This document shows, piece by piece, positions 298-20,125 of a DNA stretch of 20,125 nt. The position numbers were made by a program, and so were the translations under genes. The notes below the pieces were generated by a model, which saw nothing but the letters and a program-made list of their open reading frames with translations, searched no databases and was not told where the DNA came from. Within the stretch, counting starts at the first letter, position 1; each line of letters starts with the position of its first letter. This DNA is from a bacterium (lineage in GTDB: Bacteria; Krumholzibacteriota; Krumholzibacteriia; LZORAL124-64-63): contig JANOEP010000019.1 in assembly GCA_031441465.1 (NCBI GenBank), positions 1 through 20,125 of the forward strand. The letters run 5' to 3'.

Positions 298-838
298 TCA
301 GAACCGAATGGTGGCCGTCACGGGAAAATGGTCGCTGGGAAACGGCTTCGTCTCGTCGTAGTCGACGATGCCAGCTTGGGAAGCTGACACCGGCGGGCGG
401 ACGAGGATCCAGTCGATGCGTTCGCTCTCGTGGCGGGCGGGCTTGAAATCGTTGAAGGTGTTTAAGTCTTCATTCCCGCGCCGAGGTGCGAGCGTCCACG
501 TGTCGACGAGGCCGACCTCCTGCGTGAGGATGTCGTAGGCGCGGCTCTTGCCGGCGAGGCAGTTGAAATCGCCGACCACCACGAGCGGCACGGTCGGGTC
601 GAGCTTGGCTAGGCGGTCGCGGATGAGCGTGGCGGCTTTCTGCCGGGCCTCTTCCACCTGGTGGTCGAAGTGGGTGTTCCAGAAATAAAATTCGCGGCCC
701 GTGGTCCGCTCGCGCAGGCGCACCCACGTCACCATACGGCGGAACTTGTTGCCCCAGGTCATCGAGCCGACGACCTCGGGCGTGTCGGAGAGCCAGAAAT
801 GGTCGAAGGCCACCGGCTCGAACCGGTCGCGGCGGAAA
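298..838 (-). pseudogene. Endonuclease/exonuclease/phosphatase (EEP) family protein, C-terminal part only (5' end missing at the junction)
   Basis: C-terminal ~179 aa of ORF 298..1149 carry FWLSDTP, NTHFDH, GDFN, RIDWI and PSDHFPV motifs. The upstream part of that ORF is the antisense of the permease gene. The N-terminal EEP motifs (TxN, QE) are absent. Confidence 0.85.
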
Positions 839-1276
<438 letters not shown>

Positions 1277-4568: not shown

Positions 4569-6031
4569 GCCGTCCCTCCTTCGACGCGGGGACCGGTCGC
4601 CGCTAGCCGGTCGAGCACGGCGGCGGCCATGGTTTCGGACTCCTTGATGCAGGCGTTGACCGACACGCCGCGGTACGAGCTGCCGCCGAGGTGCAGACCC
4701 GGGAGGCCGGCGAGCTGCGCGTCGATCCGGCGCAGGCGGTCGAGGTGGCCGGGCTCGTACTGGGCGATGGCCCGCGGGTGGCGGAACACCTGGACCATCG
4801 CGGGCTCGCCGCGCAGGCCCATCAGGCCGCGCAACTCGGCGACGGCGCGGTCCCGCAGGGCGTCGTCGTCGTCGTCCAGGACGCGCGGGTCGAGTGGGCC
4901 GCCGGCCATGCAGTGCAGCAGGACCCGGCCATCCGGGGCGCGGTCCGGGAAGATGCTGCTGGTCCACAGGGCGCCCAGCAGGCGGCTGCGCTCGCGGGTG
5001 GGGATCAGCAGGCCGAAGCCGTCGAGGTCGTGGGCCACGTCGTCGCGCGCGTAGCCCAGGGCGATCACGGCCATGGGCACGTAGGGGATGCCGTCCAACA
5101 GACCGGACAGCGTGGGGTCGAGGCCGCGCAGGTGGGCGGCGGCCGCGTGGGCCGGCGTGGCGTGGACGACGGCGTCGCAGTTGATGGTCTCATTCCCGGC
5201 GGTCCGCACCCGCCAGGTGTCACCGTCGCGCAGGATCGACGCGACCTCGCTGTCCCCGGCGAGGACCGCGCGGGCGTCGGTGCGCAGAGCTTGCGTCAGG
5301 GCGGCGGGCAGCGCCGCCATGCCGCCGCGGAAGGAGTGCAGGGTGCCGGACGGGCCGGCGTCGGCGGCCTTCTTGCGCTGCTTGGAGATGGCCGCCAGCG
5401 CCCGGAACAGGCTGCCGTGGTCGCGCTCCAGCTCGATCATCCGGGGGAATGCGGCCGCCAGGCTGAGCCGGCGGGCGTCGCCGCCGAAGATGCCCTTGAC
5501 CATCGGGTCGAGCATCAGCTCCGCGAAGTCGCGCCCCAGGCGCCGTCGGCCGAACTCCCAGACCGACTCGTCGGTCGTGGGATCGTCGGCCGCGCGGCCC
5601 AGGTCCCGCCGACGCGGCACGAGGAGTTCGCCCAGGATGCGCAGCTTGGCGCGGAGGGAGAAGAGGTCGCTCTTGAGGAAGGCGGGCGGCGAGGCGGGGA
5701 TCTCCCGCAGGCGGCCGCCGACCACCAGGAAACGGCGCCGGGCCGCATCGCTGCTGCGCACCAGTTCGCCGCCCAGCTCCAACCGGTCGACCAGGCGCAG
5801 GGTCGCCGGCTCGTTGTCCAGGAAGCCGTTGGGCCCCCACTCCAGGCGCCAGCCGTCGCGTGCGAGGGTGCGCAGGTTGCCGCCGAAGTCCGGCGCGGCC
5901 TCCAGGACGTCGACCCGCAGGTCCAGCCCGCGCGCCGTCGCCCCTTCCAGCAGGCGCAGGGCCGTGGCCAGGCCCGACACCCCGCCGCCGACCACGACCG
6001 CGCGTCGCGTGCTCCCGGAGCGCTCAGGCAC
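4565..6031 (-). CDS. hemY: FAD-dependent protoporphyrinogen/coproporphyrinogen oxidase (HemY type)
   Basis: GTG at 6031 with GGAGG upstream. Rossmann motif VVVGGGVSGLATA, E.GPNGF, GIFGGD...LS...AFP, GFGLLIP, SSIFPDRAP, AIAQYEPGH, YRGVSVNACI. Confidence 0.92.
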   Translation of the reverse strand: MPERSGSTRRAVVVGGGVSGLATALRLLEGATARGLDLRVDVLEAAPDFGGNLRTLARDGWRLEWGPNGFLDNEPATLRLVDRLELGGELVRSSDAARRRFLVVGGRLREIPASPPAFLKSDLFSLRAKLRILGELLVPRRRDLGRAADDPTTDESVWEFGRRRLGRDFAELMLDPMVKGIFGGDARRLSLAAAFPRMIELERDHGSLFRALAAISKQRKKAADAGPSGTLHSFRGGMAALPAALTQALRTDARAVLAGDSEVASILRDGDTWRVRTAGNETINCDAVVHATPAHAAAAHLRGLDPTLSGLLDGIPYVPMAVIALGYARDDVAHDLDGFGLLIPTRERSRLLGALWTSSIFPDRAPDGRVLLHCMAGGPLDPRVLDDDDDALRDRAVAELRGLMGLRGEPAMVQVFRHPRAIAQYEPGHLDRLRRIDAQLAGLPGLHLGGSSYRGVSVNACIKESETMAAAVLDRLAATGPRVEGGTA

Positions 6032-7112
6032 GCGTCGCCTCCGCGTGGAAGGGATCGCCGGCCAGGCGCGCCGCCAGCGAAGTGAGCCAGGTCTCGTCGA
6101 GGTTGAGCGCGGCGCCGCGGTCGAACTCCCGCACGCCCAGGCGCTCGGCCTCGCGCCGCAGTTCGAGGTCGAGTTCGTGCAGCGTCTCGATGTGCTCACA
6201 GGTGAAGCTGACCGGCTGCACCAGCAGGTGGCGGCAGCCGGCTTCGGCCAGGCGGCGCGTCTCGGCCGTGATCTCGGGACCGAGCCACTTGATGGGGCCG
6301 ACCTTGCTCTGGAAGGCCAGAAGGGGTGCGGGGCCGCCCGGCAGGCGGGCCAACCAGGCGGCGTGCCCGGCCGCGGCGAAGGCCGACCGCACGCGTTCGT
6401 GGACGGCGCTGACCGTGGCGCGGGTCTGGCTGAGATAGGGGTCGCCGCGTTTCACGAATCTCTCGGGCAGGGAGTGGGCCACGTAGATCAACGCGCAGGC
6501 CTGCGGGTCCACGCCCTCGCCGGCCCAGCGCAGCAGGCCGCGGCCGGCGTTGGCTGCCAGGGTCGCGATGAAGCCGTCGAGCAGGTGCCAAGCCTCGACC
6601 ACGTGGACCGCGGCGCCGGGGGCGAAACGGTCCAGCGACTCCTGTACGAAGGCCAGCGTGCTGCCGTTGGTGGCGTCGGAGTACTGGGGGTACATCGGCA
6701 GGACCAGGAACTGCTCCGCGCCGCGCTCACGCAACCCGCGCACGGCCTCGTCGGGGTAGGGGCGCCAGTAGCGCATGGCCGGCAGCGCGACCGTCGGGCG
6801 GCCGGCTGCGATCAGCAACTCGGCCAGCCGGTCGCCTTGGGCGCGGGTGGTCGGGACCTGCGGCGAGCCGCCGCCGTGGCCCATTTCGAGGTACCGCCGC
6901 CGCACGGCCGGCGCGCGCCGCCGCGCGATCAGGCTGCCCAGGACCGGGGAGAGGAAGCGCGGGATGGGGATGATCTGGGGATCCCGGAACAGGTTGCGCA
7001 GGAAGGGCTCCACGGCGTCGGGCCCGTCGGGACCGCCCATGCCGCAGAGGATCAGGCCCGTGGTCCGGGCCGGGTCGAGGCGGTCCTGCCGAAAGCGACG
7101 CGGTGCGGTCAT
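6024..7112 (-). CDS. hemH: Ferrochelatase
   Basis: ATG 7112 with GAGG upstream. Motifs MGGP, PFLRNLFRDP.II, GGGSP, MRYWRP, LPMYPQYS, AHSLP, GDPY, FQSKVGP.KWLGP, F..EHIETLHELD. Confidence 0.95.
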   Translation of the reverse strand: MTAPRRFRQDRLDPARTTGLILCGMGGPDGPDAVEPFLRNLFRDPQIIPIPRFLSPVLGSLIARRRAPAVRRRYLEMGHGGGSPQVPTTRAQGDRLAELLIAAGRPTVALPAMRYWRPYPDEAVRGLRERGAEQFLVLPMYPQYSDATNGSTLAFVQESLDRFAPGAAVHVVEAWHLLDGFIATLAANAGRGLLRWAGEGVDPQACALIYVAHSLPERFVKRGDPYLSQTRATVSAVHERVRSAFAAAGHAAWLARLPGGPAPLLAFQSKVGPIKWLGPEITAETRRLAEAGCRHLLVQPVSFTCEHIETLHELDLELRREAERLGVREFDRGAALNLDETWLTSLAARLAGDPFHAEATRA

Positions 7113-7119
7113 CCTCGCC

Positions 7120-8496
7120 TCAGATGGTCTTGGAGAACAGGGGCGTCTCGCTCGTGCGGTCCAGGTAGGCGTCGAACTCCATGCACAGGTTGCGCACGAA
7201 GAAGCGCCCCAGCTCGGTGACGCGCACACGGTCGGGCAGGAACTCCACGAACCCCTCATCCTGATAAGGGCGCAGGCGGGCCAGCCCGTCGGCCAGCAGC
7301 GCGTCCGCGGGCGTGCCGAAGCCGGGCTCGGTCAGCGCGTACGGCAGTTCCAGGTTGCACATCAGGTTGAGGATCGCCAGGCGCCGCAGGCGGTCGTCGT
7401 CGCTGAGCCGGTGACCCTTGACGATCGGCAGGCGTCCGGCGTCGATCGCGGTCTGGTAGCCGTCGAGTTCGGCGTCGTTCTGGACGAAGCGGTCGCACAC
7501 GTCGCCGATGCCGCTCATGCCGAAGGCCAGCATGTGGGGCGCCGGCCGCGTCGTGTAGCCCATGAAGTTGCGGTGCAGGCGCCGCTCCCGCAGCGCGACC
7601 GCGAGTTCGTCGTCGCGGCGGGCGAAGTGGTCGATGCCGATCCAGTCGTAGCCGGCCTCGGCGAACAGGTCGATGGCCAGGCGGAACAGCTCGAACTTCT
7701 CGAAGCCGGACGGCATGTTGTCGGTGTTGATGAGCTTCTGCTGGGGCTTGACCCAGGGCACGTGGGCGTAGCTGAAGCAGGCCACGCGGTCGGGCCCCTG
7801 CTCGATGATGTCGTGCAGGGTGCGCTCGAAGGACGTGCGCGTCTGCTCCGGCAGGCCGTAGACGAGGTCGAGGTTGACGCCCTCGTAACCGGCCTCGCGG
7901 CAGGCCCGGTACAGCTCCAGCGTGCGGTCGCGCTTCTGCAGCCGGCCGATGGCCTTCTGCACCGCGGGCTCGAAGTCCTGCACGCCCAGGCTGATGCGGT
8001 TGAAGCCCTGCGCGCGCAGGAAGCGCGCCTGTTCGGGCGTGCCGATGCGCGGGTCGACCTCGATCGAGATCTCGCCCCGCGGGTCGACGGCGAAGGCGGC
8101 GCGCAGCAGGCGCAAGGCGCGCTCGACCTGCGGGTCCTTGAGGAAGTTGGGCGTGCCGCCGCCCCAGTGCAGCTGCACGACGCGCCGGCCGGGGCCCAGC
8201 ACGTCCACCACCGCCGCCAGCTCGCGCTCGACGCGGTCGAGGTAGGCGTCGACCGCGCCCTTCTCGCTGGAGACCACGGCGTTGCAGCCGCAGTAGTGGC
8301 AGTGCTTCGCGCAGAAGGGCAGGTGCAGGTAGACCGACAGCTCGTCGTCGGGACGCGACGAGAGTTCGCGCAGCGCCTCGCGGTAGTCGGTCTCGCCGAA
8401 GTCGCGCGTCCAGGCCGGCACTGTCGGGTAGCTCGTGTACCGCGGTCCCGGCTTGTCGTGCTTCTGGAGCAGTTCGCGCGGCACGTCCAGCGCCAT
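7120..8496 (-). CDS. hemN: Oxygen-independent coproporphyrinogen III oxidase (radical SAM)
   Basis: N-terminal GPRYTSYPT (true HemN rather than HemW), YLHLPFCAKHCHYCGC (CxxxCxxC), HWGGGTP, GFNRISLGVQDF, DLVYGLPEQ, IGIDHFA, RNFMGYTT, FSKTI end. Confidence 0.96.
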   Translation of the reverse strand: MALDVPRELLQKHDKPGPRYTSYPTVPAWTRDFGETDYREALRELSSRPDDELSVYLHLPFCAKHCHYCGCNAVVSSEKGAVDAYLDRVERELAAVVDVLGPGRRVVQLHWGGGTPNFLKDPQVERALRLLRAAFAVDPRGEISIEVDPRIGTPEQARFLRAQGFNRISLGVQDFEPAVQKAIGRLQKRDRTLELYRACREAGYEGVNLDLVYGLPEQTRTSFERTLHDIIEQGPDRVACFSYAHVPWVKPQQKLINTDNMPSGFEKFELFRLAIDLFAEAGYDWIGIDHFARRDDELAVALRERRLHRNFMGYTTRPAPHMLAFGMSGIGDVCDRFVQNDAELDGYQTAIDAGRLPIVKGHRLSDDDRLRRLAILNLMCNLELPYALTEPGFGTPADALLADGLARLRPYQDEGFVEFLPDRVRVTELGRFFVRNLCMEFDAYLDRTSETPLFSKTI

Positions 8497-8497
8497 G

Positions 8498-9535
8498 TCA
8501 GTCCCCCTCGCGGTACGCCTGCACGGTCGCGACCAGGGTCTCGACCGCGGCGATCGGCGCTTCGGGCAGGATGCCGTGCCCGAGGTTGAACACGTGGCCG
8601 GCGGCCTCGCGGCCGGCGCGGCAGATCTCCAGCGCGCGGCGGCGGATCTCCTCGTGGCTGCCGAACAGGCACAGCGGATCGAGGTTGCCCTGGACCGCCT
8701 TGCCGGGATAGGTGCGCGCGGCGACTGCCAGGTCGAGCGTCCAGTCCACGCCGAACGCCTCGGCGTCGAGCGTGCGGACATGGTCGAGGTAGGGGGCGCT
8801 GCCCTTGAGGAAGTAGACCCGGGGCACGCCGGCGTCCTTCAAGCCCGCGAGGATGCGCCGCAGGCCCGGCATGATGATCGCGGCGTAGTCCTGGGGGTGC
8901 AGGATGCCGCCCCAGGTGTCGAAGATCTGGACCGCGTCGACGCCCGCTTCGACCTGCATCAGCAGGTAGTCGGTGATCTGGTCGGCGAGCTTGTCCAGCA
9001 GGCGCGCCAGCAGCGCCGGATCGGAATAGAGCATCGCCTTGAGGTGCCGGTAATCCTTCGAGCCCCCGCCCTCGATCATGTACGCCGCCAACGTGAACGG
9101 CGCGCCGGCGAACCCGATCAGGGGCGTGTGGCCGCCGAGTTCGCGCTTGATCAGGCGCACGGCCTCGGCCACGTAGCCGGTGTGCTCGCGCGAGTCGACG
9201 ACGCAGAGGGCGTCCACGTCGGCGGCCGTGCGGACGGGATCGTGCATCCGCGGGCCGTGGTCGTCGAAGGAGAAGGGGGCGCCCATGGGCTCCAGCGGCA
9301 CCAGGATGTCGCTGAACAGGATGGCCGCGTCGAAGCCGAAGCGACGGATCGGCTGCAGGGTGACCTCGCAGGCCAATTCGGGGGTCTTGCACAGCCCGAT
9401 GAACGAGGTCTTCTCACGCACCGCGCGGTACTCGGGCAGGTAGCGGCCCGCCTGACGCATGATCCAGATGGGCGTGCGCTCGGGAGCCTCGCCCCGCAGG
9501 GCGGCTAGGTAGGGGCTGGTCTGAAGAGAGGCCAT
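8498..9535 (-). CDS. hemE: Uroporphyrinogen decarboxylase
   Basis: PIWIMRQAGRYLPEYR, DAAILFSDIL, LIGFAGAPFTLAAYMIEG, QIFDTW, QGNLDP, HVFNLGHGI; GGAG RBS. Confidence 0.97.
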   Translation of the reverse strand: MASLQTSPYLAALRGEAPERTPIWIMRQAGRYLPEYRAVREKTSFIGLCKTPELACEVTLQPIRRFGFDAAILFSDILVPLEPMGAPFSFDDHGPRMHDPVRTAADVDALCVVDSREHTGYVAEAVRLIKRELGGHTPLIGFAGAPFTLAAYMIEGGGSKDYRHLKAMLYSDPALLARLLDKLADQITDYLLMQVEAGVDAVQIFDTWGGILHPQDYAAIIMPGLRRILAGLKDAGVPRVYFLKGSAPYLDHVRTLDAEAFGVDWTLDLAVAARTYPGKAVQGNLDPLCLFGSHEEIRRRALEICRAGREAAGHVFNLGHGILPEAPIAAVETLVATVQAYREGD

Positions 9536-9684: not shown

Positions 9685-9722
9685 AAGAAACGGGCCCCGC
9701 ACCGTCCTGGTGCGGGGCCCGT
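9685..9722 (-). terminator. Rho-independent terminator downstream of the omcS-like gene
   Basis: Perfect 14-bp stem ACGGGCCCCGCACC (9690-9703) / GGTGCGGGGCCCGT (9709-9722) with a 5-nt loop, followed on the minus strand by TTTCTT; 45 bp after the stop at 9768. Confidence 0.85.
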
Positions 9723-9767: not shown

Positions 9768-10889
9768 TCAGTGCACTTCGTAGTGCGCGTCGCCGAAGTC
9801 CTTCACATGGCACTTGTTGCACAGCGAACGCTGGTTGGTCACCAGGGTGTAGCCGTAGTCCTTGTTCGCCACGTCATCCGCCGAGGCGCCGGTATCGGTG
9901 ATCAGCGGGTGCGAGCTGATCAGGTGCGTGGACGTGAAGTCCCAGCGGCCGGCGTCCGCGAAGGGCGACGCGTGCGAGCGATGGCAGGTCAGGCACATGA
10001 CCTGGTCCTGGGGCAGGGGGCCCTGGGTGTAGTTCAGGGGGTTGACGGTCTCGAGGTCGACGTTGACGACTTCGAAGGGCACCAGGCCGCGGTACGAGGT
10101 GGCGGGGTCGCCGCCGGTGGTCTGGTCGGTGGTGATGTAGGCGTTGTAGGTCGCCGCCACCAGGCTGCCCATGTCCTCGCCGGTCGCGTGCACGAAGTCC
10201 GAGGTGTTGCCCGAGTGGAGGTCCGTGTGGCAGTTGGCGCACCACTCGCTCATGCCCGACTTGTAGACGGTGTGCGAGAGGTCGGTCTCGGGCACGCCCG
10301 AGGGGCTGTTGCCCAGCGTGCGGCGGCTGTTGCCGACGGCCAGCGGAGCGGGGCTGTCGAAGCCGTAGCGGGCGCCGCCGTAGATGGGGCCGGTGCCCTC
10401 GTCGCCGTACAGCAGGCGGTAGTTCTCGTTGCCGTGGGGATCGTGGCAGCTGGTGCAGGTCAGGTACTGGCTGTCGAAGTCGCCGCCGGGGGCCGCGGCC
10501 AGCATGGGATCCCGGACGATGCCGTAGGCCGGCGAAACGACGTTATGGCCGTGCGTGTAGCCCTGCCGGGAGCCGGCGCGGGGGAGGGTCCACGAGAAGG
10601 TCTTGGTGAGCCAGTAGAAGTCGCCACCGGCGCCCCAGCCGAAGCCGCCGGCGAACTGGCCGTAGGCCGCGTGGCACTTCAGGCAGGTGTCGCTGGCGTT
10701 GCCGTTGTTCAGCAGGTAGGCGTTGCCCGCGGGATGATTGACATCCACGGGGTTGCCGTTCTGGCTGTTGTGCATCGTGTGGCAGCCGGCGCAGTAGGCC
10801 ACGCCGCCGTCGTGGAACGCCAGGGCGGCGCCGCTGCTCAGGGCGAGAGCCAGGACGATGGTTGCGGTGATCAACAGTTTGTTCTTCAC
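9768..10889 (-). CDS. omcS: OmcS-family hexaheme outer-surface cytochrome c (candidate nanowire subunit)
   Basis: GTG start with GGAGG RBS; 24-aa Sec signal ending ALA; six CxxCH motifs (CAGCH, CLKCH, CTSCH, CANCH, CLTCH, CNKCH). The blocks FHDGGVAYCAGCHTMHNS, GGDFYWLTKTFSW, GHNVV, APGG, CHDPHG, YRLL, GMSEWCANCHTDLH, PFE, CHRSHAS and QRSLCNKCHVKD are colinear with Geobacter OmcS as I recall it. Confidence 0.9.
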   Translation of the reverse strand: MKNKLLITATIVLALALSSGAALAFHDGGVAYCAGCHTMHNSQNGNPVDVNHPAGNAYLLNNGNASDTCLKCHAAYGQFAGGFGWGAGGDFYWLTKTFSWTLPRAGSRQGYTHGHNVVSPAYGIVRDPMLAAAPGGDFDSQYLTCTSCHDPHGNENYRLLYGDEGTGPIYGGARYGFDSPAPLAVGNSRRTLGNSPSGVPETDLSHTVYKSGMSEWCANCHTDLHSGNTSDFVHATGEDMGSLVAATYNAYITTDQTTGGDPATSYRGLVPFEVVNVDLETVNPLNYTQGPLPQDQVMCLTCHRSHASPFADAGRWDFTSTHLISSHPLITDTGASADDVANKDYGYTLVTNQRSLCNKCHVKDFGDAHYEVH

Positions 10890-11067
10890 AGAATCGCCTC
10901 CGAGTTGTGCCGGCGGGCGAAGCCGCCGATGGGGTTTGACGCTGGCGACCGGGTCGCCGTGGCCGAGCGTGAGGCCGGCCGCTCTTCATCCGACGAGAAC
11001 CAGAACCACTGCCGAAAATCGAGACGTGCGAACAATCCTTGCGGCCCCGCGCGGGCGGAGCCTCCTG

Positions 11068-11991
11068 CTACTCTCCTGCTTCCGTGCCGAAGATCCCGAA
11101 CGTCTGGACGCGCCCTTCGTAGCCCTGGGCCACGAACACGCGCCCGGACGTCGCGGCGATGGCGAGGGGGTGGTAGAGCTGCCCCGGCGCACCGCCGAAC
11201 GAACCGAACTCTGACGAGAAGTTGTGGTCACGGTCGTAGACCAGGACCGTGTGCCGCATGCGGTCCAGGACCAGGACCTCGCCCGCGGGCCCGAAGGCGA
11301 TGCCGACCGGGAAGGCGAGGCGGCCCGGGCTGGTGCCGGGGCGGCCGAAGGAACCGGCGTCCGCACCGTCCGCCGTGCGGATCAGCACCAGGTGCAACTC
11401 GCCGCCGGGGATGTAGAGGCGGCCGTCGGGCGCTTCGGCGGGACGGCCGAGTTCCGACTGCTCGCTGACGCCCTCGAGGGCGCGGTGCCAGAGCACGCGG
11501 CCCGTCGCGGCGTCGTGCTTGGTGAGCGTGCCGGCGTATTTGTCGAGTGAGACGTAATTGCCGTCGGCGGTGACGATCAGGTGGTCCGGCTGCCACTGCG
11601 GCGCGGGCCGCTCGACGTCGAAGCGCACCGGCTCGCCGCGCAGGTCGAGCTTGCGCAGGGTGCGCGCGCCGTCGGCGTCACGGTCCGCGAAGACGAAGCC
11701 GCCGTCGAGCTCGAGGCTGCCGTCGACGGGGGTCGAGAGGGCGGCCGCGATGCTGCTGGTGAACAGGGTGATCCCGTTCCCGTCGACGACGTGGAATTTC
11801 ACGCCCCGCTCGTCGGTGACGCACACGTCGCCGGTCGCGGGATCGAGGCTCAGGGCGACGGGACGAACCTGGCCGGCCGCACCCATATCGATCTGCAGCG
11901 TGCTTTCATAGCGAAAAGCGATCGTTCCCTTTGCCGCGAGCGGGCAAACGGTCAGCAGGGCGGCGATGCAGATTGCGCGGCTGCTTGTCAC
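11068..11991 (-). CDS. Secreted NHL-repeat beta-propeller protein
   Basis: Repeats such as FGRPGTSPGRLAFPVGIAFGPAGEVLVLD and FGSFGGAPGQLYHPLAIAATSGRVFVAQ. A signal-peptide-like N-terminus follows GTG 11991; the alternative start is ATG 12066. Confidence 0.85.
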   Translation of the reverse strand: MTSSRAICIAALLTVCPLAAKGTIAFRYESTLQIDMGAAGQVRPVALSLDPATGDVCVTDERGVKFHVVDGNGITLFTSSIAAALSTPVDGSLELDGGFVFADRDADGARTLRKLDLRGEPVRFDVERPAPQWQPDHLIVTADGNYVSLDKYAGTLTKHDAATGRVLWHRALEGVSEQSELGRPAEAPDGRLYIPGGELHLVLIRTADGADAGSFGRPGTSPGRLAFPVGIAFGPAGEVLVLDRMRHTVLVYDRDHNFSSEFGSFGGAPGQLYHPLAIAATSGRVFVAQGYEGRVQTFGIFGTEAGE

Positions 11992-12092
11992 GGGGGTGTC
12001 ACCGAATCTGTTGGTGTATTCACAGCGAAGTTGTTTCGAAGTCACTCGCGACGCTGTTGTTGTCATTCATTGTGAGCTCTTGTCACGGAGAT

Positions 12093-12122
12093 ATCATAGC
12101 GCTTCTGTTACTATTCCGTCAA
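12093..12122 (-). promoter_or_regulatory. Sigma70-type promoter for the NHL-omcS unit
   Basis: Minus strand TTGACG (12122-12117), 18-bp spacer, TATGAT (12098-12093); each hexamer matches consensus at 5/6, with an AT-rich tract upstream. Confidence 0.6.
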
Positions 12123-12206
12123 ATGCATTTTGAAGTAAACGCTCTCATATTGCGAAAAATCTTTATTTTTGACAATAGTCGCCAATATCCACTATTTCGG
12201 TCGTGT

Positions 12207-12240
12207 AAAGCAGACCGGCCCCCTGATGGGAGCCGGCCTG
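12207..12240 (-). terminator. Probable terminator hairpin after the 42-heme cytochrome gene
   Basis: Minus strand CAGGCCGGCTCCC-ATCA-GGGGGCCGGTCTG-CTTT forms a 13-bp stem whose two mismatches are G-U pairs only on the minus strand. The U-tract is short. Confidence 0.6.
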
Positions 12241-12280
12241 TTAAAATACGCACTAGTTTGGCGAGATCAATTCACAGCCA

Positions 12281-15200
12281 TCAGCGCTTCTGGCGGATCT
12301 TTTCGGTATGGCATCCGATGCACAGCTTCCCGCCGGCGTCCTCCCGGAGCACCTTCTCGAACTCCGACCCATGGGGATCGTGGCAGCTCGCGCAGACAAT
12401 CTCGCCGCCACGGACCGGGTCGGTCGTCCCGGCGCCCAGCGGGTGGTCGGTGTGCTCCTGCCAGGAGTGGCAACGCAGGCACGGGTCGGGACCGGCGGGG
12501 ACCGCACCGGCCGCCGCCGGGCTGAGGTGGGGGTTGTGGCACATCGTGCACTGACGGCCCTCGGGATCGGGGTGACGGTGGCTGGAGGACTTCATCCGCG
12601 CCGCCTGCTCGGCGTGACAGCGGCCGCAGACGGCGGCTTGGCTGCGCGGCAGCAGATCGGGCACCGGAGAGGCGTGGGGCGTGTGGCACTCCAGGCAAGC
12701 CCGCTCTCCCGAGAGGGGCGCGTGGAGGGTCGCACCCTTGAGTTCCTCGGCCAGGCCGGGATGGCAGGACAGGCAGAGGCGTTGCTCCGCACCCGCCTGC
12801 ACCTTGCCGCTCGCGTCGTGGCAGGCCTTGCAGTCCCGCTTGGCGTACGGCGGATGGACGTGGCCGTGTGTCAGGCCCGCCTGCGTGGAGGCGTGCGGGT
12901 CGTGGCAGGCCATGCAATCGGCCGACTCGAGGTCGAAGCCCAGGTGCGGCCGGGTCAGCGCCGAACTCTTCAGGTCGTGGCAGGTTGCGCAGAGGGCGGG
13001 CACCTCCCTGGTCAGGAGGTTCGCCTGAGTCGTGCCGTGCGCGTCGTGGCAGGTGGCGCAACTCCCGTCGGCGAACGGCATGTGTTGCCGGGGAAGCGAC
13101 CGCGCCTCCTGCAGGTCCTGGTGGCAGGCCCAACAAGATTTCGCCCGTTCGGTGCGCAGCAGCGCGGGCTGGTCCGACCCGTGCGGGTCGTGGCACGCGG
13201 AGCATTCGCCGTCGCGAGCCGGCCGGTGGGCCAGATCCGCCCGCGGGAACAGGTCGCTGCTCTCGTGGCACGCGGCGCAGGCGGCGCCGACGCCGCCGGC
13301 TTTCAGCAGGTGATCGCCGCGGGCTGCGTGGGCGTCGTGGCAGGCGCTGCAGTCGCCGGCGTCGAAGGGGGCGTGAGGGTGCCGGCGCGCTTCCGTGAGC
13401 CCGTCGTGGCAGCCGGCGCACAGCGCCTTCTGGTCGGCGATGGGTGCGGGGCCATCGTGGCAGGACGCGCAGTCGCGGTCGTCGAAGGGCGGGTGCGAAT
13501 TCGGCCGGATCAGCGCTGTCTGTGTGGAGTGGTGCGGCGCGTGGCAGCCCGTGCAGTCCAGCCCGGCGAGTTCACGCCCGAGGTGGGCGCTCTTCAGGGC
13601 GACGTCGCTCTCGTCGTGGCAACGGAAGCAGAGTTCGGCGGCCGGCGCCGTCAGCAACGCCGGCTGTGCGCCGCCGTGGGGCAGATGGCATGTCGTGCAG
13701 TCGTCCATGATCGGCGGATGGACCGACTTCGCCGCCGCGACGTCGACGACGTCCTCGTGGCAGACGGTGCAGAGCAGCGGCTCCGGCGCGGCCAGCAGAT
13801 CGGCACGGTCCGCGCGGTGGGCGTCGTGGCACGCGGTGCAGTTGCCGGCGGCGACCGGCGCGTGCGCGTGGCCGACGGCGCCCTGGCCTGTGTCGTGGCA
13901 GTCCAGGCAGATCGCCGTCGCCGGTCGTCGCAGCATGGCGGCCTCGTCGCCGCCGTGGGGCCGATGGCAATCCCCGCAGAGGCCGTCTGCGACGGGCGGG
14001 TGCAGGCTGCCCCCCTCGGGTTTGACCGCCTGATCGGCGTGGCAAGCCAGGCAGGTTGCCGCGGGCGAGGCCTTCAGCAGGGAAGGCTGGTCGGCGCGGT
14101 GCGGCGTGTGGCAGGCGAGGCAGTCGCCGCGCGCGGCCACATCGTGGGGGTGGGAGGTGACGAGTTCGACCTTGACCTTGAGGTGGCATCCGAGGCAGAG
14201 GGTCCCCGCCTTGGCGGTCAACAGTCCCGGCTCGGTCGAGCTGTGCGGGTCATGGCAGGCGGAGCAGTCCCGCTTGACGAAGGGCGCGTGGTCCGAGACG
14301 GCGGCGACGGACACGTCGCCGACTTCCTGGTGGCAACCCAGGCACAGCTCGCCGGGAGGCGCGGTCAGCAACGCGGCCCGCGCGCCGCCGTGGGCGTCGT
14401 GGCAGGCGTTGCATTCGCCGCCGGCGACCGGCGCATGCACCAGGTTCTTGCGGAACGGTGCGTCGTCGTGGCATTCGAAGCAGAGCCGGCGCAGCTCGGT
14501 CTTGATCATCCCGGCGTGTGAGCTGCCGTGGGCGGCGTGGCAGTCCAGGCAGGAGCCGTCGGCGACGGGTGCGTGAGGCGTCGCGGCGCCGACGCCGGGC
14601 TGGTCGTGGCAGGACAGGCACAGGTCGTTGCCCTGGGCGACCAGCGCGGTGACGCCCCCGGCGTCCTGCACGTGGCAGGCGGCGCAGTCGCGGTCCTTGA
14701 CGGGCGCGTGCTGCACGGCCAACAGGAGCTTCGGCGCGTCGGCGCTGTGGGGATCGTGGCAGGACGTGCAGCCGGTGATCGCGGCCGCGTCGCCGTGCGC
14801 CTGTGCGAGCTTGCGGGCGTCGCGGTGGCAGGACAGGCAGAGCGCGTCGACCGTCGTGTCGAGCAGGTGCGCTTCGGCGCTGCCGTGGGGCCGGTGGCAG
14901 GCGGCGCACCCCTCCTTCTTCAACGGGGCGTGGACGAACGCACGCGTGAAGGCGGCGCCGTCGTGGCAGGTCAGGCAGGCCGCGCCGCCCTTCGCCGGCA
15001 ACAGGCCGGGCTGGCCGCTGCCGTGGGGGTCGTGGCAGGCGATGCAGCCGCCGTCGCGCACCGGCGCGTGGACGTGCGCCAGCTCGGATTCGGCGATCTG
15101 GGGCGCGTGGCAGCCCGCGCACAGCTCGATGCCCGACTCCTTCAGGGCCAGCCGCCCCACGACGCCGTGGGGCTCGTGGCAGGCTTCGCACTCCGCCTTG

Positions 15201-15382
15201 GCGAAGGGGGCGTGCGCGTGGGGGGCGCCGACGGCCTTCTTCTGGTCGGCGTGGCAGTCCAGGCAGGTCTTGGTGCGGAAGGGTCCCGCCGCCAGGGCGG
15301 CCCCGGGGAACAGGATCGCCGTCAGCAGGGACGCCAGCAGCAGGACCGGAACGAGTCCGGCGGACACAGCACGCTTACTCAT
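12281..15382 (-). CDS. Giant multiheme cytochrome c, 42 CxxCH motifs (paired-CXXCH repeat family)
   Basis: 1033 aa with a Sec signal ending ALA. Hand count gives 42 CxxCH motifs in a repeating H-x-P...CxxCHxxH...LL...CxxCH unit. No lipobox or C-terminal membrane anchor. Start overlaps the upstream stop, with GGAG RBS. Confidence 0.95.
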   Translation of the reverse strand: MSKRAVSAGLVPVLLLASLLTAILFPGAALAAGPFRTKTCLDCHADQKKAVGAPHAHAPFAKAECEACHEPHGVVGRLALKESGIELCAGCHAPQIAESELAHVHAPVRDGGCIACHDPHGSGQPGLLPAKGGAACLTCHDGAAFTRAFVHAPLKKEGCAACHRPHGSAEAHLLDTTVDALCLSCHRDARKLAQAHGDAAAITGCTSCHDPHSADAPKLLLAVQHAPVKDRDCAACHVQDAGGVTALVAQGNDLCLSCHDQPGVGAATPHAPVADGSCLDCHAAHGSSHAGMIKTELRRLCFECHDDAPFRKNLVHAPVAGGECNACHDAHGGARAALLTAPPGELCLGCHQEVGDVSVAAVSDHAPFVKRDCSACHDPHSSTEPGLLTAKAGTLCLGCHLKVKVELVTSHPHDVAARGDCLACHTPHRADQPSLLKASPAATCLACHADQAVKPEGGSLHPPVADGLCGDCHRPHGGDEAAMLRRPATAICLDCHDTGQGAVGHAHAPVAAGNCTACHDAHRADRADLLAAPEPLLCTVCHEDVVDVAAAKSVHPPIMDDCTTCHLPHGGAQPALLTAPAAELCFRCHDESDVALKSAHLGRELAGLDCTGCHAPHHSTQTALIRPNSHPPFDDRDCASCHDGPAPIADQKALCAGCHDGLTEARRHPHAPFDAGDCSACHDAHAARGDHLLKAGGVGAACAACHESSDLFPRADLAHRPARDGECSACHDPHGSDQPALLRTERAKSCWACHQDLQEARSLPRQHMPFADGSCATCHDAHGTTQANLLTREVPALCATCHDLKSSALTRPHLGFDLESADCMACHDPHASTQAGLTHGHVHPPYAKRDCKACHDASGKVQAGAEQRLCLSCHPGLAEELKGATLHAPLSGERACLECHTPHASPVPDLLPRSQAAVCGRCHAEQAARMKSSSHRHPDPEGRQCTMCHNPHLSPAAAGAVPAGPDPCLRCHSWQEHTDHPLGAGTTDPVRGGEIVCASCHDPHGSEFEKVLREDAGGKLCIGCHTEKIRQKR

Positions 15383-16691
15383 GGCTCTCCTTCGCGGTCT
15401 GCTGCGCCAGCCGTTCGCGGATGACGGCTTCGGCGCCGGGGACGATCCTGACGGTCGTGGCGGCCTCGAGGCGGGCGATCGCGTTGGCGATGTTCTCCCG
15501 CGTGCGTTGGGCCCTCATCCGCAGCAGCAGGTCTTCGCGGCAGTCCGCGAGCGGCCGCGGCGTGGGTTGCTCGACCTCGGTCACGACGGCGACCACCCAG
15601 CCGCCGGGCACTTCGTAGGGATCCAGGATCTGGCCGGCCCGGGCCTCGCCCGGCTTCAGGCCGAGCATCTCCGGCTGGAGCCAGGTCGTGGGCAGGGCGG
15701 CGGCGTCCTGGCGGACCTCGGCCGTGCGCTTAGCCAGCCAGGTCATCTCGGCGCCCTGGTCCAGGCGCTTCTTAAAGGTGTCCGCGGCTTCCTTTTTCTC
15801 AAGCAGCACGCTCTGCACTTTCAGGCGGGTCGGCGGCGTCAGGTGCGACAGGTTCGCTTTGTAGAACGCGGCGATCTCGGCCTCGGTCGGCGTGAAGCGG
15901 AATCTGCCCAGGGAGTTGACCATCTCCTCGAGCACGAGGTCCCGTTCCTGCTGGGCCGCGAGGCGTTTGACCGCGCTCCGCTTGGGGTAGCCGAGCCGCC
16001 CGGACTCGTAGCCGAGCAGGGCCTCGCTGAACCACTTCTGGAAAAACTCGTCGCGGATCTGCGGGGCGTCGGGTTTGTTGGCGAGCCCGTGGAAGTGCTC
16101 GAAGCGCATGTTGCTGGTGAGCGCGCTGACGCGCAGGGCGCCCGACGGCAGTTTCGCGAGCACCGCGTCGCTCTCCTTCAGCTGCTTCTTCACCGCGGGG
16201 TCGGTCGACGCGTAGTCGAGGGAGGCGAGCAGCGTCTCGTCCACCCGGATGCCGTATTTCGACTTCAGGTCTTCGAGGTAGGCGGCGATGGCCTCTTCGC
16301 GGGCCTGCGCCGGGTCGGCGATGACCAGCGGCGCGGTGCCGGCGATCGAGTCCAGCAGGGCGATGATGCTGCGCGAGCGGATGGTCTCGCGCACCTGGGC
16401 CGCGATCATGTCCTTGCGGTGAAGGCCCGTGCGGTACCCCTCCTGGATGATCAACTCGTTCTGGACCAGGCGCCGCAGCACGGCCGCGGGCTCGGGCATC
16501 TGCTGCTCCTGGCTCTTGTTCATCTGCAGCGTGACGAAGAGTTCCATGTCGAGGTCGGCGACGGAGATCGTGTCGCGACCCACGAACGCGAGGGGGGTGT
16601 TCTCTGACGGGACCGCGGCCACGGTCGCGCTCGCGACCAGGAGCGCGACGACGGTGAGCGCGAGGCGGGCGTGGGAACGGGCGAATTTCAT
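15375..16691 (-). CDS. SurA/PrsA-like periplasmic chaperone with parvulin (PpiC)-type domain
   Basis: Signal peptide; LAFVGRDTISVADL and VLRRLVQNELIIQEG (SurA-N-like); PTEAEIAAFYKAN; VQSVLLEKKEAA...RLDQGAEMTWLAK; LKPGE...PYEVPGGWVV. Confidence 0.8.
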   Translation of the reverse strand: MKFARSHARLALTVVALLVASATVAAVPSENTPLAFVGRDTISVADLDMELFVTLQMNKSQEQQMPEPAAVLRRLVQNELIIQEGYRTGLHRKDMIAAQVRETIRSRSIIALLDSIAGTAPLVIADPAQAREEAIAAYLEDLKSKYGIRVDETLLASLDYASTDPAVKKQLKESDAVLAKLPSGALRVSALTSNMRFEHFHGLANKPDAPQIRDEFFQKWFSEALLGYESGRLGYPKRSAVKRLAAQQERDLVLEEMVNSLGRFRFTPTEAEIAAFYKANLSHLTPPTRLKVQSVLLEKKEAADTFKKRLDQGAEMTWLAKRTAEVRQDAAALPTTWLQPEMLGLKPGEARAGQILDPYEVPGGWVVAVVTEVEQPTPRPLADCREDLLLRMRAQRTRENIANAIARLEAATTVRIVPGAEAVIRERLAQQTAKESHE

Positions 16692-16692
16692 G

Positions 16693-17766
16693 TCAACGTA
16701 CCTTCCCCGGCTGCCGGGATTCCTCCCACAGCCTGTGCATGGACGCGGCGAGCAACCGCCGCGGCGAACTCGATCCCGTGTTGCCGAACCAGCCCCGCAC
16801 GGGGCGGTTGTCCTGATCGATGTCGAAAGCGGCGGCCACCAACCCCGTGCGGGTGTCGACCGTGCGCAGGTGCAGCGAGAACGAGGACAGCGTCTCCCAG
16901 GGAACCGCGGACGCCGACGCGCCTTCTTCGGCCGCGGACGGGGCGGCCTGGTCCGGTTCGCGGGTGATCATTTCCAGCACGATCGCCTCGGGCGCGCCGA
17001 ACGTCTCGGCCAGGAGCGCCAGCCCGGATCGATCGAGCCGGCGCGGGTCGGCGCCTCCGGCCACCAGGGCGCCGCCCAGCACGGCCGGGTCCAGGACCGC
17101 GCACGCCGAGTCGGCCAGCGCGGCTTCGAGCAGGCACTGGGTCGCGATCTGGGCGGTCGCGGCGTCGAACCCCAGGGGATGGACCGCCAGCGGCGCGAGG
17201 GGCGCCCCCGACCGCGGCCGGTTCGTCGCGGCGAGCGTGGCGACGAGCCGGCGGCAGGCGATCGCGAAGTCGATCCGCCAGGCGGCGCCGCCCAGGGCGC
17301 ACGCTTCGGTGGCCGCCGACCCGATCAGGCCGGTGCCGGCGTCGAGGGTGCGGCCGGCCAGTTCGATGCGGTCGCGCCCGAGGTACAGGTGGACGAGCAG
17401 CAGGCGGTCCGCGCCCGCGCTGTCGAGATCGGCGAGGAAGGCCGGCGGGAGGAGCCGGCCGTCGCGGATCCGCCGGTGGCGCTGCAGGGCCAGCGACGAC
17501 GCGGCCGGCAGGGGCGCGCCGCCGTGGCGCGCGAGCGCGCCGGTCAGCTCCTGTTCGCCGAGCGCGCGCAGGTCGGCCAGGTCCGTCACGCCGCTGCCGT
17601 TGCCGGCGCCGGCCATGAACAGCAGGATGCAGGTGCGGCCGGTCGGGTCGGGTGCGGCGCGCTGCGCGGCGGCGGGGGTCGCACCCAGCAGGGACGACAG
17701 CAGCGCCAGGACCGCCGCGGCGTGCCTGAAGTGGGCGACCATGGGGCTGCCGGACGTCGCTCGCAT
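16693..17766 (-). CDS. Exported protein with two CsgG/TolB-N-like alpha/beta domains
   Basis: ATG 17766 overlaps the upstream stop (TGATG); alternative ATG 17742. Signal peptide ending AAA. Two copies of the strand motif (IELAGRTLDAGTGLI and FSLHLRTVDTRTGLV), each preceded by a GAD/GAP helix-strand element. Confidence 0.65.
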   Translation of the reverse strand: MRATSGSPMVAHFRHAAAVLALLSSLLGATPAAAQRAAPDPTGRTCILLFMAGAGNGSGVTDLADLRALGEQELTGALARHGGAPLPAASSLALQRHRRIRDGRLLPPAFLADLDSAGADRLLLVHLYLGRDRIELAGRTLDAGTGLIGSAATEACALGGAAWRIDFAIACRRLVATLAATNRPRSGAPLAPLAVHPLGFDAATAQIATQCLLEAALADSACAVLDPAVLGGALVAGGADPRRLDRSGLALLAETFGAPEAIVLEMITREPDQAAPSAAEEGASASAVPWETLSSFSLHLRTVDTRTGLVAAAFDIDQDNRPVRGWFGNTGSSSPRRLLAASMHRLWEESRQPGKVR

Positions 17767-18335
17767 CAGAACAGGGACTCCAGCGCGTCGCGCACCGCCC
17801 GGCGCGACACCTCGTGTTGGCTCGCCGAGTCGCCGCCGAAGAGCTTGCGCCAGAACGACGAGCCGTCGCGCGAGACCTGGGCGTTCCAGACCATGGTGCC
17901 GGTCTCGGTCTCCAGCATGGAGAACGACGCGGTCAGCGCGCAGGTCTGATCGCCGCCGCTGCGCCGCTGCCCGTAGTCCTCCACCGTGCCGGTGAAGATC
18001 GCCTGGGCGCCGAGCGCCTCGCCGAGCGTGACGACCTGTTCCGGCGTCAGGGGCGTGTCGGACCCCAGGCCGAGCCGGTTGCAGGCCGCCAGCGTCGCGC
18101 CCGGGTCGACGATGTCCAGCGCCTCGGTCTGCAGCAGTTCGGCCAGGAACACCGGCTGCAGCCGCGCCGCCGCGAAGCGGTCGGCGCTGAGATTGTGGAA
18201 CGGGACCACCGCGCAGCTCTTGACGAAGCTGAGATCCACGTCGGGATGGATGAAGTGCGTGGTCTGGGGCGCGCACCCGGCCAGCAGGGCCAGCCCGAGC
18301 GCGAGCGCGATCCGGATTTCCCGTCGATATGCCAT
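17766..18335 (-). CDS. CsgG/PelC/DUF799-like lipoprotein
   Basis: ATG 18335 with GGAGA RBS (alternative 18353); lipobox LAGC; AVVPFHNLS, LGEALGAQAIFTGTVEDY, MLETETGTMVW and amphipathic FWRKLFG. Confidence 0.8.
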   Translation of the reverse strand: MAYRREIRIALALGLALLAGCAPQTTHFIHPDVDLSFVKSCAVVPFHNLSADRFAAARLQPVFLAELLQTEALDIVDPGATLAACNRLGLGSDTPLTPEQVVTLGEALGAQAIFTGTVEDYGQRRSGGDQTCALTASFSMLETETGTMVWNAQVSRDGSSFWRKLFGGDSASQHEVSRRAVRDALESLF

Positions 18336-18373
18336 CGTCCCGTCTCCCGTCATGGCGGCCGCGCGGCCGCGCC

Positions 18374-20125
18374 TCAGAAGCTCCAGTGGACCCTGAAGCT
18401 GGTGTTGAAGGGCGAGTTCCGTTCGCCGTCGCGTTCGTATTCCTGGACCTCGAGTCCGCCTTCGAGCGTGAGGCGGGGGCGCGCGCGGCAGACCGCCTGC
18501 ACGGAGGCACCCTGCTGGTGGGTGTCGGTGCGCGTGTCGTGCTGGTCGCTGAGCGAGAACTGCAGGCTGACGCTGCCGCCGGGCAGCGGGGTCCAGGTCA
18601 GGTAGTGGCGCAGCATCCAGTCGTCCCTGAGGCGCTGCTCGTAGCGGGCGAGACTGTTCAGCGACAGCAGGGGCCGGATCTGCCAGCCGAGGTCGAGTTG
18701 CGTGTCGTTGAAGGGCGTGAATCCCGCGCCCGCGACCGTGCTCACCCAGCGGTTGACGCGGCGCAGGTTCAGGCTGAGTTGCGGCTTCGGGGCGCAGGTG
18801 ACGGTCGTGGAGACGGTCCATGACCGGGAGTCCTGGGTCGAAGCGTAGTCGTCGAGGCGCGCGTGGCTGACTTGCTGTTGCAGGCGGAACGCCGGGGCCG
18901 GCTGCCAGGCGACGTCCAGCGACACGTTTTCGGTGACCTTGTCGAGGTCGCGGCTGTGATCCACCAGGCGCGACCAGCCCAGCCGGCTCCAGAGGCGCTC
19001 GCGCTCGCGGCGGGTCAGCGAGAGGGTGGTGCCCGTCACGTCGGTGCTGCTGCGCGACGGGCTCTCCAGCTTGTCGACGTGGTAGGAACCGCTGGCCGTC
19101 CACAGGCCGCGGCGCCAGGTCGCGCCCAGGCGGTGGTCGGCGCCGCTGAGATCGCGCGCCGCATCGTCGAAGCGGCGCTCTTCGAAGCTGGCGTCGTAAG
19201 TCAGCGTGAGATCGCGGCGCGCGTCGTATTCCAGGTTGCCGATCAGCTGGTACCGCGAGACATCGCTCTCGGACGTCGCGCTGGATCCTGGCCCCTCGAT
19301 CTCGAGTTCGGTCAGGGCGATCACCGCTTCGGTGGGGCCGGTCTTGATGTCGACCAGCTTCAGGCGGCGCGCGGCGATCCCCGACGGGAACTCGATGAGC
19401 CAGCCCTGACGCCCGTTGCCCCAGTCCTGGTAGGCGGCGCGCGCGGCGCCGGGCGCCAACTCGGTCCAGGCGACGCCCTCGGGGTCGTCGTTGACGAAGA
19501 CGCGCCACTGCAGGAAAGCGGGGAAGCGCACGATGTCCGCGATGTAGAGAACGGCCTGGGTCATCTCCGTCGTCTCGCCGAAGTCCACCACGAGGTTGCG
19601 GTAGTCGCCGCCGTACTCGCGCACGACGGCCTGTTCGTCGCCGAGGTCCAGGCCCGCCGGCTGGTCGCGGTCCAGGTCGGCCAGGGCCGGCAGCGGCGTC
19701 GGTGCGGGTTCGAGGGGGTCGAGGCTCTCGGGAGTCCCATCCAAGACGTAGCCGATGGACAGCGGCACCAGCAGCGAGCGCCGGTCGCCGCCGAGATCGA
19801 TGGTCTGGTGCAGGAATCGGCTGCGGGCTTCCAGAGCGTAGCGGACCCGGTTGCCGTCCAGACGGCCCGACTTCCGGTACTGCGAGCTGTGACTGGTGAA
19901 GAGCCGCTTGGTGCCGCTGCTCACCGATCTCGTGTCGCTGCGGGTAAAACCGTAGCGCAGATCCCCGTAGCGTTGCCAAGAACGCTGGATGCCGGCGCTC
20001 AGCATCCGGTCGCGGTTCTCGGTTTCCGTCGGGGGCGTTTCGCGCCGCCAGGAGGCGGTGTCGCTGTAGCGCAGGTACCAGTCCCCCCAAGCGGGTACGC
20101 CGCGCACATTGGCGCCCCAGTCCAG
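18374..20125 (-). CDS. Outer-membrane beta-barrel protein with an inserted discoidin/F5-8-type-like domain, 5' end beyond the window
   Basis: The frame is open to the window edge (LDWGANVRGVPAW...). Many alternating amphipathic strands rich in W/Y/S/T/R. The C-terminus FRVHWSF ends in an aromatic residue like a BAM beta-signal. Confidence 0.78.
   Translation of the reverse strand: MDWGANVRGVPAWGDWYLRYSDTASWRRETPPTETENRDRMLSAGIQRSWQRYGDLRYGFTRSDTRSVSSGTKRLFTSHSSQYRKSGRLDGNRVRYALEARSRFLHQTIDLGGDRRSLLVPLSIGYVLDGTPESLDPLEPAPTPLPALADLDRDQPAGLDLGDEQAVVREYGGDYRNLVVDFGETTEMTQAVLYIADIVRFPAFLQWRVFVNDDPEGVAWTELAPGAARAAYQDWGNGRQGWLIEFPSGIAARRLKLVDIKTGPTEAVIALTELEIEGPGSSATSESDVSRYQLIGNLEYDARRDLTLTYDASFEERRFDDAARDLSGADHRLGATWRRGLWTASGSYHVDKLESPSRSSTDVTGTTLSLTRRERERLWSRLGWSRLVDHSRDLDKVTENVSLDVAWQPAPAFRLQQQVSHARLDDYASTQDSRSWTVSTTVTCAPKPQLSLNLRRVNRWVSTVAGAGFTPFNDTQLDLGWQIRPLLSLNSLARYEQRLRDDWMLRHYLTWTPLPGGSVSLQFSLSDQHDTRTDTHQQGASVQAVCRARPRLTLEGGLEVQEYERDGERNSPFNTSFRVHWSF

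Follow-up and report, generated by a model that had tools for sequence, protein, structure and literature searches.

The window analysed here is a 20,125-nucleotide stretch of DNA forming one whole contig (JANOEP010000019.1, C19 in our numbering, assembly GCA_031441465.1) of a bacterium of the phylum Krumholzibacteriota, and it probably carries a derived, streamlined omcS-companion (osc) cluster. Seven genes, all on the minus strand, encode a beta-barrel (OscE), a PelC-like lipoprotein (OscF), a tandem PelC-like protein (OscG), a parvulin chaperone (OscH), a 42-heme cytochrome, an NHL propeller and an OmcS-family hexaheme cytochrome (Table 1); the channel genes OscE, OscF and OscG stand in order. 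An earlier note made from the sequence had described seven co-oriented genes here as a rearranged osc-like locus. The genes, their places and their orientation all hold, and each gene pairs with a Geobacter osc counterpart by profiles, single-protein searches and motif spacing. As two features of the Geobacter eight-gene block fail, OscD and the last NHL gene, the locus is a variant and not a canonical osc cluster.

Correspondence with the Geobacter osc cluster

The reference cluster is that of genome G282, which encodes a protein identical to OmcS of PDB 6EF8 over 407 of 407 residues. Its genes run in the order kinase, response regulator, NHL propeller, omcS, second hexaheme, spermidine-synthase-like protein, third hexaheme, YVTN-type propeller, 729-residue protein, lipoprotein, tandem protein, parvulin, 26-heme cytochrome, 16-heme cytochrome and NHL propeller. 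Published work equates oscC with GSU2501, oscI with GSU2495 and oscJ with GSU2494 (PMC13194489), links the eight-gene block GSU2500-GSU2493 to maturation and secretion, with 26 hemes in GSU2495 (PMC12977616), and gives GSU2506/2507 as regulator and kinase (PMC10599522). The letters D to H of the reference genes follow from the G282 order together with these locus tags, and the first reference NHL gene is GSU2505 by position, because GSU2506/2507 are regulator and kinase. OscH is described as folding, OscE/F/G as secreting and OscD as shaping the wire (PMC13194489). The 16-heme oscJ of G282 (L100:12189-13529) is frame-broken, with 10 motifs in one frame and 5 in another; a frameshift difference in oscJ between strains is listed in the literature (PMC13194489).

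For each reference family a profile was made from 12 to 15 loci with the Geobacter order (6 for the last NHL gene and 2 for the GSU2502-like gene), and these profiles were searched against the six-frame proteome of the window genome, whose completeness is 96.8%. The OscE profile found the barrel (E 5e-15) and the OscF profile the lipoprotein (4e-39), each as its sole match in the genome. The OscH profile ranked the parvulin first (4e-33; genome-wide runner-up 9e-21), and the profile of the NHL gene preceding omcS did the same for the window propeller (2e-21; genome-wide runner-up 3e-8). In 35 profile-profile comparisons, covering five window families and seven reference families, the expected partner ranked top for all five: barrel with OscE (99.9%, 651 columns), lipoprotein with OscF (100%), parvulin with OscH (99.9%, E 3e-33), propeller with the pre-omcS NHL family (99.8%) and tandem protein with OscG (94.8%, E 5e-8, 279 columns). 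The lipoprotein is 36% identical to reference OscF. Single-protein searches returned the cluster gene as best match in all three whole genomes for OscF and likewise for OscH, and in two of the three for the NHL protein.

The three propeller families of the reference cluster are told apart at the profile level, the window propeller matching the pre-omcS family at E 1e-28, the post-oscJ family at 6.5e-11 and OscD at only 0.006. In a quick tree of 79 propellers it groups with the pre-omcS family and away from the 14 post-oscJ rows (support 91-93). On these comparisons the window NHL gene is the orthologue of the gene directly upstream of Geobacter omcS (GSU2505 by position). An identity with OscD was considered and rejected on the same evidence.

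The 42-heme cytochrome

The motif spacings of the 42-heme protein reproduce the pattern of 26-heme OscI, then a 17-residue junction, then the pattern of 16-heme OscJ. When linkers alone were compared in register, OscI fitted best at offset 0 and OscJ at offset 26 in all 10 comparisons, which drew on five genomes. The protein keeps one Sec-type signal peptide and that of OscJ is gone. By its sequence, then, the cytochrome is an in-frame OscI-OscJ fusion, and an origin by simple repeat expansion is rejected.

A second 42-heme fusion occurs in G065 (L112:12841-15939); its junction has 23 residues, and the surrounding cluster has the Geobacter order and retains OscD. In a combined tree of OscE, OscF and OscG (64 loci, FastTree, midpoint root, ten duplicate or broken loci left out) it nests among unfused clusters. 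Two independent origins of the fusion are the simplest reading. Very large cytochrome frames of 49 and 16 motifs also lie between two omcS-like genes in an Anaeromyxobacter (L077:11487-19675).

OscI and OscJ are given no role within the osc cluster in the accessible text of PMC13194489 and PMC12977616. OmcS extends 47.5 angstroms per six hemes (PMC6584659), and at that rise a straight chain of 42 hemes would be about 33 nm long; periplasms measure less than 30 nm in most microbes and more than 40 nm in G. sulfurreducens, where the triheme PpcA-E charge OmcS (PMC10954620). No frame with exactly three CxxCH motifs, as in a triheme Ppc-type carrier, was found among the 27 reading frames of the window genome that have at least three. 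We tentatively propose that OscI and OscJ may be the halves of one head-to-tail, periplasm-spanning wire that would charge the filament directly at OscE, and that this lineage may possess a hard-wired, minimal six-gene, OscD-free kit. The idea of a hard-wired circuit from inner membrane to nanowire draws on the fusion having arisen twice and on the genome having no triheme Ppc-type carrier. When the barrel and the part of the cytochrome that binds the last 12 hemes were predicted as a complex, using proteins of a close relative (L004) modelled without hemes, the score was 0.00, which counts neither for nor against contact. Searches of the literature, with the osc-defining study and its supplements outside their reach, returned no report of the fusion, of a 42-heme cytochrome or of this gene order.

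Distribution and evolution

A strong OscF match (E under 1e-60) is present in 40 of 151 genomes of the phylum, and 14 more have weaker matches only. An OmcS-family gene occurs in 45 of the 151: it accompanies every strong OscF match (40/40) and none of the weak, PelC-like ones (0/14). The earlier note had allowed that these genes might instead keep company with systems such as Pel polysaccharide export; the company found is that of OmcS, and PelG was not found in the window genome.

Window-type OscH is encoded in 29 of the 151 genomes, and the layout was surveyed at 21 of these 29 loci. The order E-F-G-H-IJ-NHL-S is shared by 20 of the 21; in the remaining one the contig ends within the cytochrome. 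Eighteen of the surveyed loci have one 41- or 42-heme frame, and in two the frame is broken away from the junction. In the OscE+F+G tree the window-type loci form one clade (support 1.0); these relatives are not independent, so the layout counts as one inherited rearrangement. The nearest relatives of the hexaheme that carry informative labels are mostly Candidatus Krumholzibacteriia, with a few from Gemmatimonas or Fibrobacteraceae, and a 2020 report describes an omcS match in a Krumholzibacteria genome (10.1101/2020.09.22.307553).

Other layouts were seen along the way. In two loci (L023, L037) NHL-omcS is preceded by 26- and 16-heme genes; behind it come additional genes (NHL, 9-heme and 20-heme) and a pair of PelC-like genes, and the stretch seen holds no match to OscE or OscH. 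Five others (L018, L027, L032, L071, L072) consist of divergent halves, with NHL-S-D-E-F-G running one way and H-I-J-NHL the other.

Missing and displaced components

OscD was sought with a 29-row alignment in 71 genomes of the family, a full-length copy being defined by E under 1e-100. Such copies occur in five of the 71, and 21 others have only partial propeller matches. None was found in the window genome or in any of the 26 family genomes with window-type OscH. Several Geobacter-order loci from other lineages (e.g., L020, L035, L061, G089) lack OscD too, so its loss is not peculiar to the clade of the window.

A second NHL gene after oscJ, at the position of GSU2493, was not found; the NHL gene behind the 42-heme gene is of the pre-omcS family. 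The NHL-omcS pair thus lies behind the E-F-G-H-IJ block instead of before it, and the GSU2502-like gene sits outside the cluster, on contig C35. The earlier note had seen a single omcS paralog. This stands for the cluster and not for the genome, which encodes a second hexaheme on contig C11 (L002:8944-10062), 57% identical and with all 12 conserved histidines. That paralog stands alone, with no osc genes nearby; many relatives have similar orphans.

Barrel, PelC-like proteins and chaperone

OscE has about 735 residues in all, of which the window holds the last 583, ending in a C-terminal phenylalanine. A model of a full-length relative (81% identical; predicted local distance difference test score, pLDDT, 89) has 11 long strands followed by an inserted domain (residues ~250-415) and 17 more strands, about 28 together. 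The insert is discoidin/CBM32-like, with a weak CBM32 match (E 0.002). Foldseek retrieved only generic large barrels for OscE, at template modelling (TM) scores < 0.3, with MtrB (6R2Q) at rank 7.

The lipobox cysteine of OscF, Cys21, is invariant in 52 rows. Profiles of OscF and OscG match PelC (5T11, 9H80, 5T0Z) and GNA1162 at E 1e-7 to 1e-11, and also LpoB. OscG carries a signal peptide without an evident lipobox, and its second domain matches OscF (E 6e-24); its model (pLDDT 87.6) has two alpha/beta domains, for which Foldseek lists PelC first and CsgG at rank 43, a matter of shared fold. Neither protein matched CsgG in Pfam or, at E up to 1, in profile searches of PDB. The earlier note had called both proteins CsgG-like; this identity is rejected in favour of the PelC, GNA1162 and LpoB relationship. 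PelC assembles into a twelve-membered ring at the PelB barrel (PMC12141448; PDB titles), and by analogy we infer that OscF and OscG may form a PelC-like collar under OscE.

OscH is a SurA/PrsA-like parvulin. About 110 residues are missing relative to the reference protein, corresponding to the first of its two parvulin domains, which is retained in four loci of the clade.

Gene layout, transcription signals and heme genes

The earlier note had described the cluster genes as mostly coupled. This is accurate for the first part, where the lipoprotein and tandem genes overlap by 1 nucleotide, the tandem and parvulin genes are 1 nucleotide apart and the parvulin and cytochrome genes overlap by 8. 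It does not extend to the cytochrome, NHL, omcS and hemE genes, which are parted from one another by gaps of 178-232 nucleotides. The E-F-G-H-IJ machine and the NHL-omcS pair look like separate transcription units: a terminator-like hairpin follows the cytochrome gene, its stem preserved in four of four aligned close relatives, and a sigma-70-like promoter precedes NHL-omcS, with both hexamers identical in the same number of aligned relatives. Neither this hairpin nor the one between omcS and hemE was listed by a separate terminator scan. In the one RNA run considered, 6% of words matched, and the assembled pieces were short, shallow and partly from other organisms.

Table 1. Features of the window and their coordinates.
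Feature	Position	Strand	Remarks
Barrel (OscE)	18374-20125	-	5' end beyond window
Lipoprotein (OscF)	17766-18335	-	PelC/GNA1162/LpoB-fold; lipobox LAGC
Tandem protein (OscG)	16693-17766	-	two PelC-like domains
Parvulin (OscH)	15375-16691	-	Pfam Rotamase_2, E 3e-12
42-heme cytochrome (OscI-OscJ fusion)	12281-15382	-	exactly 42 CxxCH
Fusion junction	near 13420-13456	-	hemes 1-26 = OscI, 27-42 = OscJ
Terminator-like hairpin after 42-heme gene	12211-12240	-	z -3.2; 2/200 shuffles as stable
Sigma-70-like promoter before NHL-omcS	12093-12122	-	TTGACG-18-TATGAT; 10/12 consensus match
NHL propeller	11068-12066	-	possible alternative start: GTG at 11991
OmcS-family hexaheme	9768-10889	-	only PDB sequence match OmcS 6EF8, E 2.9e-42
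Hairpin between omcS and hemE	9690-9722	-	14-bp perfect hairpin, then TTTCTT; z -4.2; 0/200 shuffles as stable
hemE-hemN-hemH-hemY-(CcsA/HemX-like)-hemA	2368-9535	-	second half of heme operon; context, outside cluster

Sequence beyond position 20125, whose retrieval the earlier note had proposed, is supplied by contig C41. It shares with the end of the window a 141-nucleotide stretch that occurs once per contig, 141 nucleotides being the overlap length at many contig ends of this assembly. C41 carries the start of the barrel gene, a divergent 7-heme cytochrome and hemC-hemD-hemB-hemL. The 7-heme gene (L001:16361-17266) is divergent from the barrel and overlaps the end of hemL. Many osc clusters outside Desulfobacterota likewise have such a gene nearby, with a position and orientation that vary. 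None was seen in Geobacter-side loci; the gene is a possible extra osc component.

The osc cassette sits between hemL and hemE, splitting one heme operon. The genes hemA, hemE, hemH and hemY are single-copy in the genome, and those for heme attachment (ResB and CcsA families) are on contig C35. A CcsA/HemX-like membrane protein encoded before hemA (3705-4562) falls below the CcsB cut-off; the full maturation pair is on C35. Heme genes flank the cassette in five of the 21 surveyed loci, with a lone hemA in a sixth, and no hem gene lies within the stretch fetched, whose flanks are limited, in the other 15. An unfused Geobacter-order osc cluster of another clade (G089, L115) occupies the same hemB/hemE slot, and in two unrelated loci (L030 and L044) osc clusters have hem genes as neighbours. 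The hem-osc adjacency recurs but is not required, and the heme genes are the cell's only, housekeeping pathway, merely interrupted by the cassette.

Elsewhere in the window, a short frame for the C-terminal part of an ABC permease (701-1276, plus strand) overlaps a minus-strand frame of the endonuclease/phosphatase family; the region (298-1276) looks like gene remnants or a misjoin.

The hexaheme subunit and alternative explanations

Across an alignment of 124 members of the family, eleven histidines, six from the motifs and five others, are conserved in virtually every row, and a histidine stands at the OmcS His16 position in 93%. The window hexaheme has all twelve, with His40 as the equivalent of His16, which we take to be the ligand donated to the neighbouring subunit. 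Each OmcS subunit uses 11 histidines of its own and one from a neighbour as heme ligands (PMC6584659).

We consider it likely that the cluster exports and displays the hexaheme; whether the hexaheme then forms the predicted filament appears evenly balanced. In the mechanism we envisage, whose steps draw on Geobacter genetics and on folds, the hexaheme would be exported by Sec, obtain its hemes through the CcsBA system, whose genes lie elsewhere, and be held by the OscH chaperone. It would then pass through, or be mounted on, the ~28-strand OscE barrel, with OscF and OscG as a PelC-like periplasmic collar beneath. Outside, subunits would stack head to tail via the His16-type ligand, while the fused OscIJ may serve as a periplasmic wire carrying electrons to the OscE platform.

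Several observations weigh against this account. Conservation of His16 in 93% of the family means that it does not single out wire formers. With the three reference paralogs the hexaheme shares 36.7, 37.3 and 38.9% identity, and its branch lies outside theirs; given this near-equal identity, polymerisation is not readable from orthology, and no specific orthology to wire-forming OmcS, as against OmcT, GSU2501 and OmcJ, was found. As far as the accessible accounts go, only OmcS among the four paralogs is known to form wires, the paralogs being indistinguishable by sequence (PMC12977616), and the physiological role of cytochrome filaments is itself disputed (PMC11077965). Among the companion genes, the OscG profile by itself missed the tandem gene in the genome and matched the lipoprotein only; its profile-profile match is modest and the weakest of the five pairs. 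The best single-protein match of the window NHL in the reference genome is a different NHL protein. Finally, the same genome has other candidate barrel-plus-cytochrome loci.

These loci are the reason to reject the osc cluster as the only outer-membrane conduit of the genome. One (L130:6171-13309) encodes a DmsE decaheme, a 632-residue candidate barrel and a 9-heme protein; two more contain 28- and 12-heme frames (L131:5648-10221) and 20- and 13-heme frames (L132:5344-10662), whose overlaps suggest frame breaks.

The genes could alternatively encode an oversized MtrCAB-like conduit, with a DmsE/MtrA-type chain of 42 hemes threaded into the barrel and passing electrons to one surface hexaheme that does not polymerise. 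Such an arrangement would agree with the 42-heme protein scoring far above the DmsE-family model cut-off, though as repeats, with MtrB turning up in the Foldseek results for the barrel, with the status of most OmcS paralogs, which are not known wire formers (PMC12977616), and with the absence of OscD, the protein linked to wire morphology. However, the barrel gave no MtrB family match and resembles only generic large barrels, and a separate DmsE decaheme adjoining its own candidate barrel is already present, so that we regard this conduit as unlikely. To our knowledge, Mtr-type conduits possess neither a chaperone nor PelC-like proteins, which also speaks against it.

Less probable still is the near self-contained unit of the earlier note, in which a dedicated heme operon would be co-regulated with the wire machinery and supply it. 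The adjacency of hem genes to osc clusters, seen in the surveyed loci, in G089 and in L030 and L044, may reflect selection. Against it stand the single-copy, housekeeping nature of the hem genes, the strong hairpin between omcS and hemE, the 15 of 21 loci free of hem genes in the stretch fetched and the location of heme attachment on C35; with one heme pathway and attachment encoded on another contig, the unit is not self-contained. Export of a polysaccharide or amyloid by the barrel and the PelC-like proteins, in the manner of Pel or curli and with the cytochromes as mere neighbours, is scarcely credible. The PelC matches of OscF and OscG and the sugar-binding-type fold within the barrel would fit such export. 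It is rejected as largely refuted by the strict association of strong OscF with OmcS-family genes, which genomes with only weaker PelC-like matches do not share, and by the absence of PelG from the genome, the other pel genes not having been searched one by one; no glycosyltransferase or curli gene was found among the window proteins scanned. A streamlined osc cluster thus remains the explanation we prefer.

Relation to known systems

The closest known system is the osc cluster of G. sulfurreducens (GSU2505-GSU2493), compared here on the accessible descriptions. Counterparts of OscE, F, G, H, I and J follow in the same order, and an NHL gene directly precedes an OmcS-family hexaheme gene in both. 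The Geobacter NHL-omcS pair lies before the block, whereas that of the window lies after it; OscI and OscJ are separate there and fused here; and two OscH parvulin domains and three hexahemes contrast with one of each. The window further differs in the OscD and GSU2493-position NHL genes, which were not found, in the GSU2502-like gene on C35, in the 7-heme cytochrome flanking the block and in a host outside Desulfobacterota.

Other systems share parts of the design. PelBC of P. aeruginosa (9H80, PMC12141448) likewise combines a barrel with lipoprotein domains of PelC fold in a potential periplasmic ring; the window barrel, however, gave no PelB match, there is no PelG, the likely cargo is a cytochrome, and three PelC-like domains are spread over two genes. 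The omcE clusters of Desulfuromonadia resemble the window in bringing together a subunit, two multiheme cytochromes, NHL-type propellers, a large barrel and nearby heme-maturation genes, but their tetraheme subunit is unrelated to that of the window, and the accessible text describes no counterparts of OscF, OscG or OscH (PMC13712944). With MtrCAB/DmsEF the window shares a periplasmic cytochrome with paired CxxCH motifs, a large barrel and an outer cytochrome; it differs in having 42 hemes against 10, a barrel outside the MtrB family, and chaperone and collar genes.

Implications

The core osc system has already been described, which limits the surprise. How nanowires are secreted, anchored and charged was still called unanswered in 2026 in the accessible text of PMC13712944, and a natural minimal cluster indicates what can be dispensed with (OscD, the last NHL gene, one parvulin domain and the extra hexahemes) and what is fixed, namely OscE-F-G-H-I-J and NHL-omcS. 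The repeated OscI-OscJ fusion suggests a testable role for two little-studied giant cytochromes, and the cluster, being compact, is a candidate to express in a heterologous host. For this uncultured phylum, the result goes beyond a mere omcS match: about a quarter of the sampled genomes appear to possess a complete export kit.

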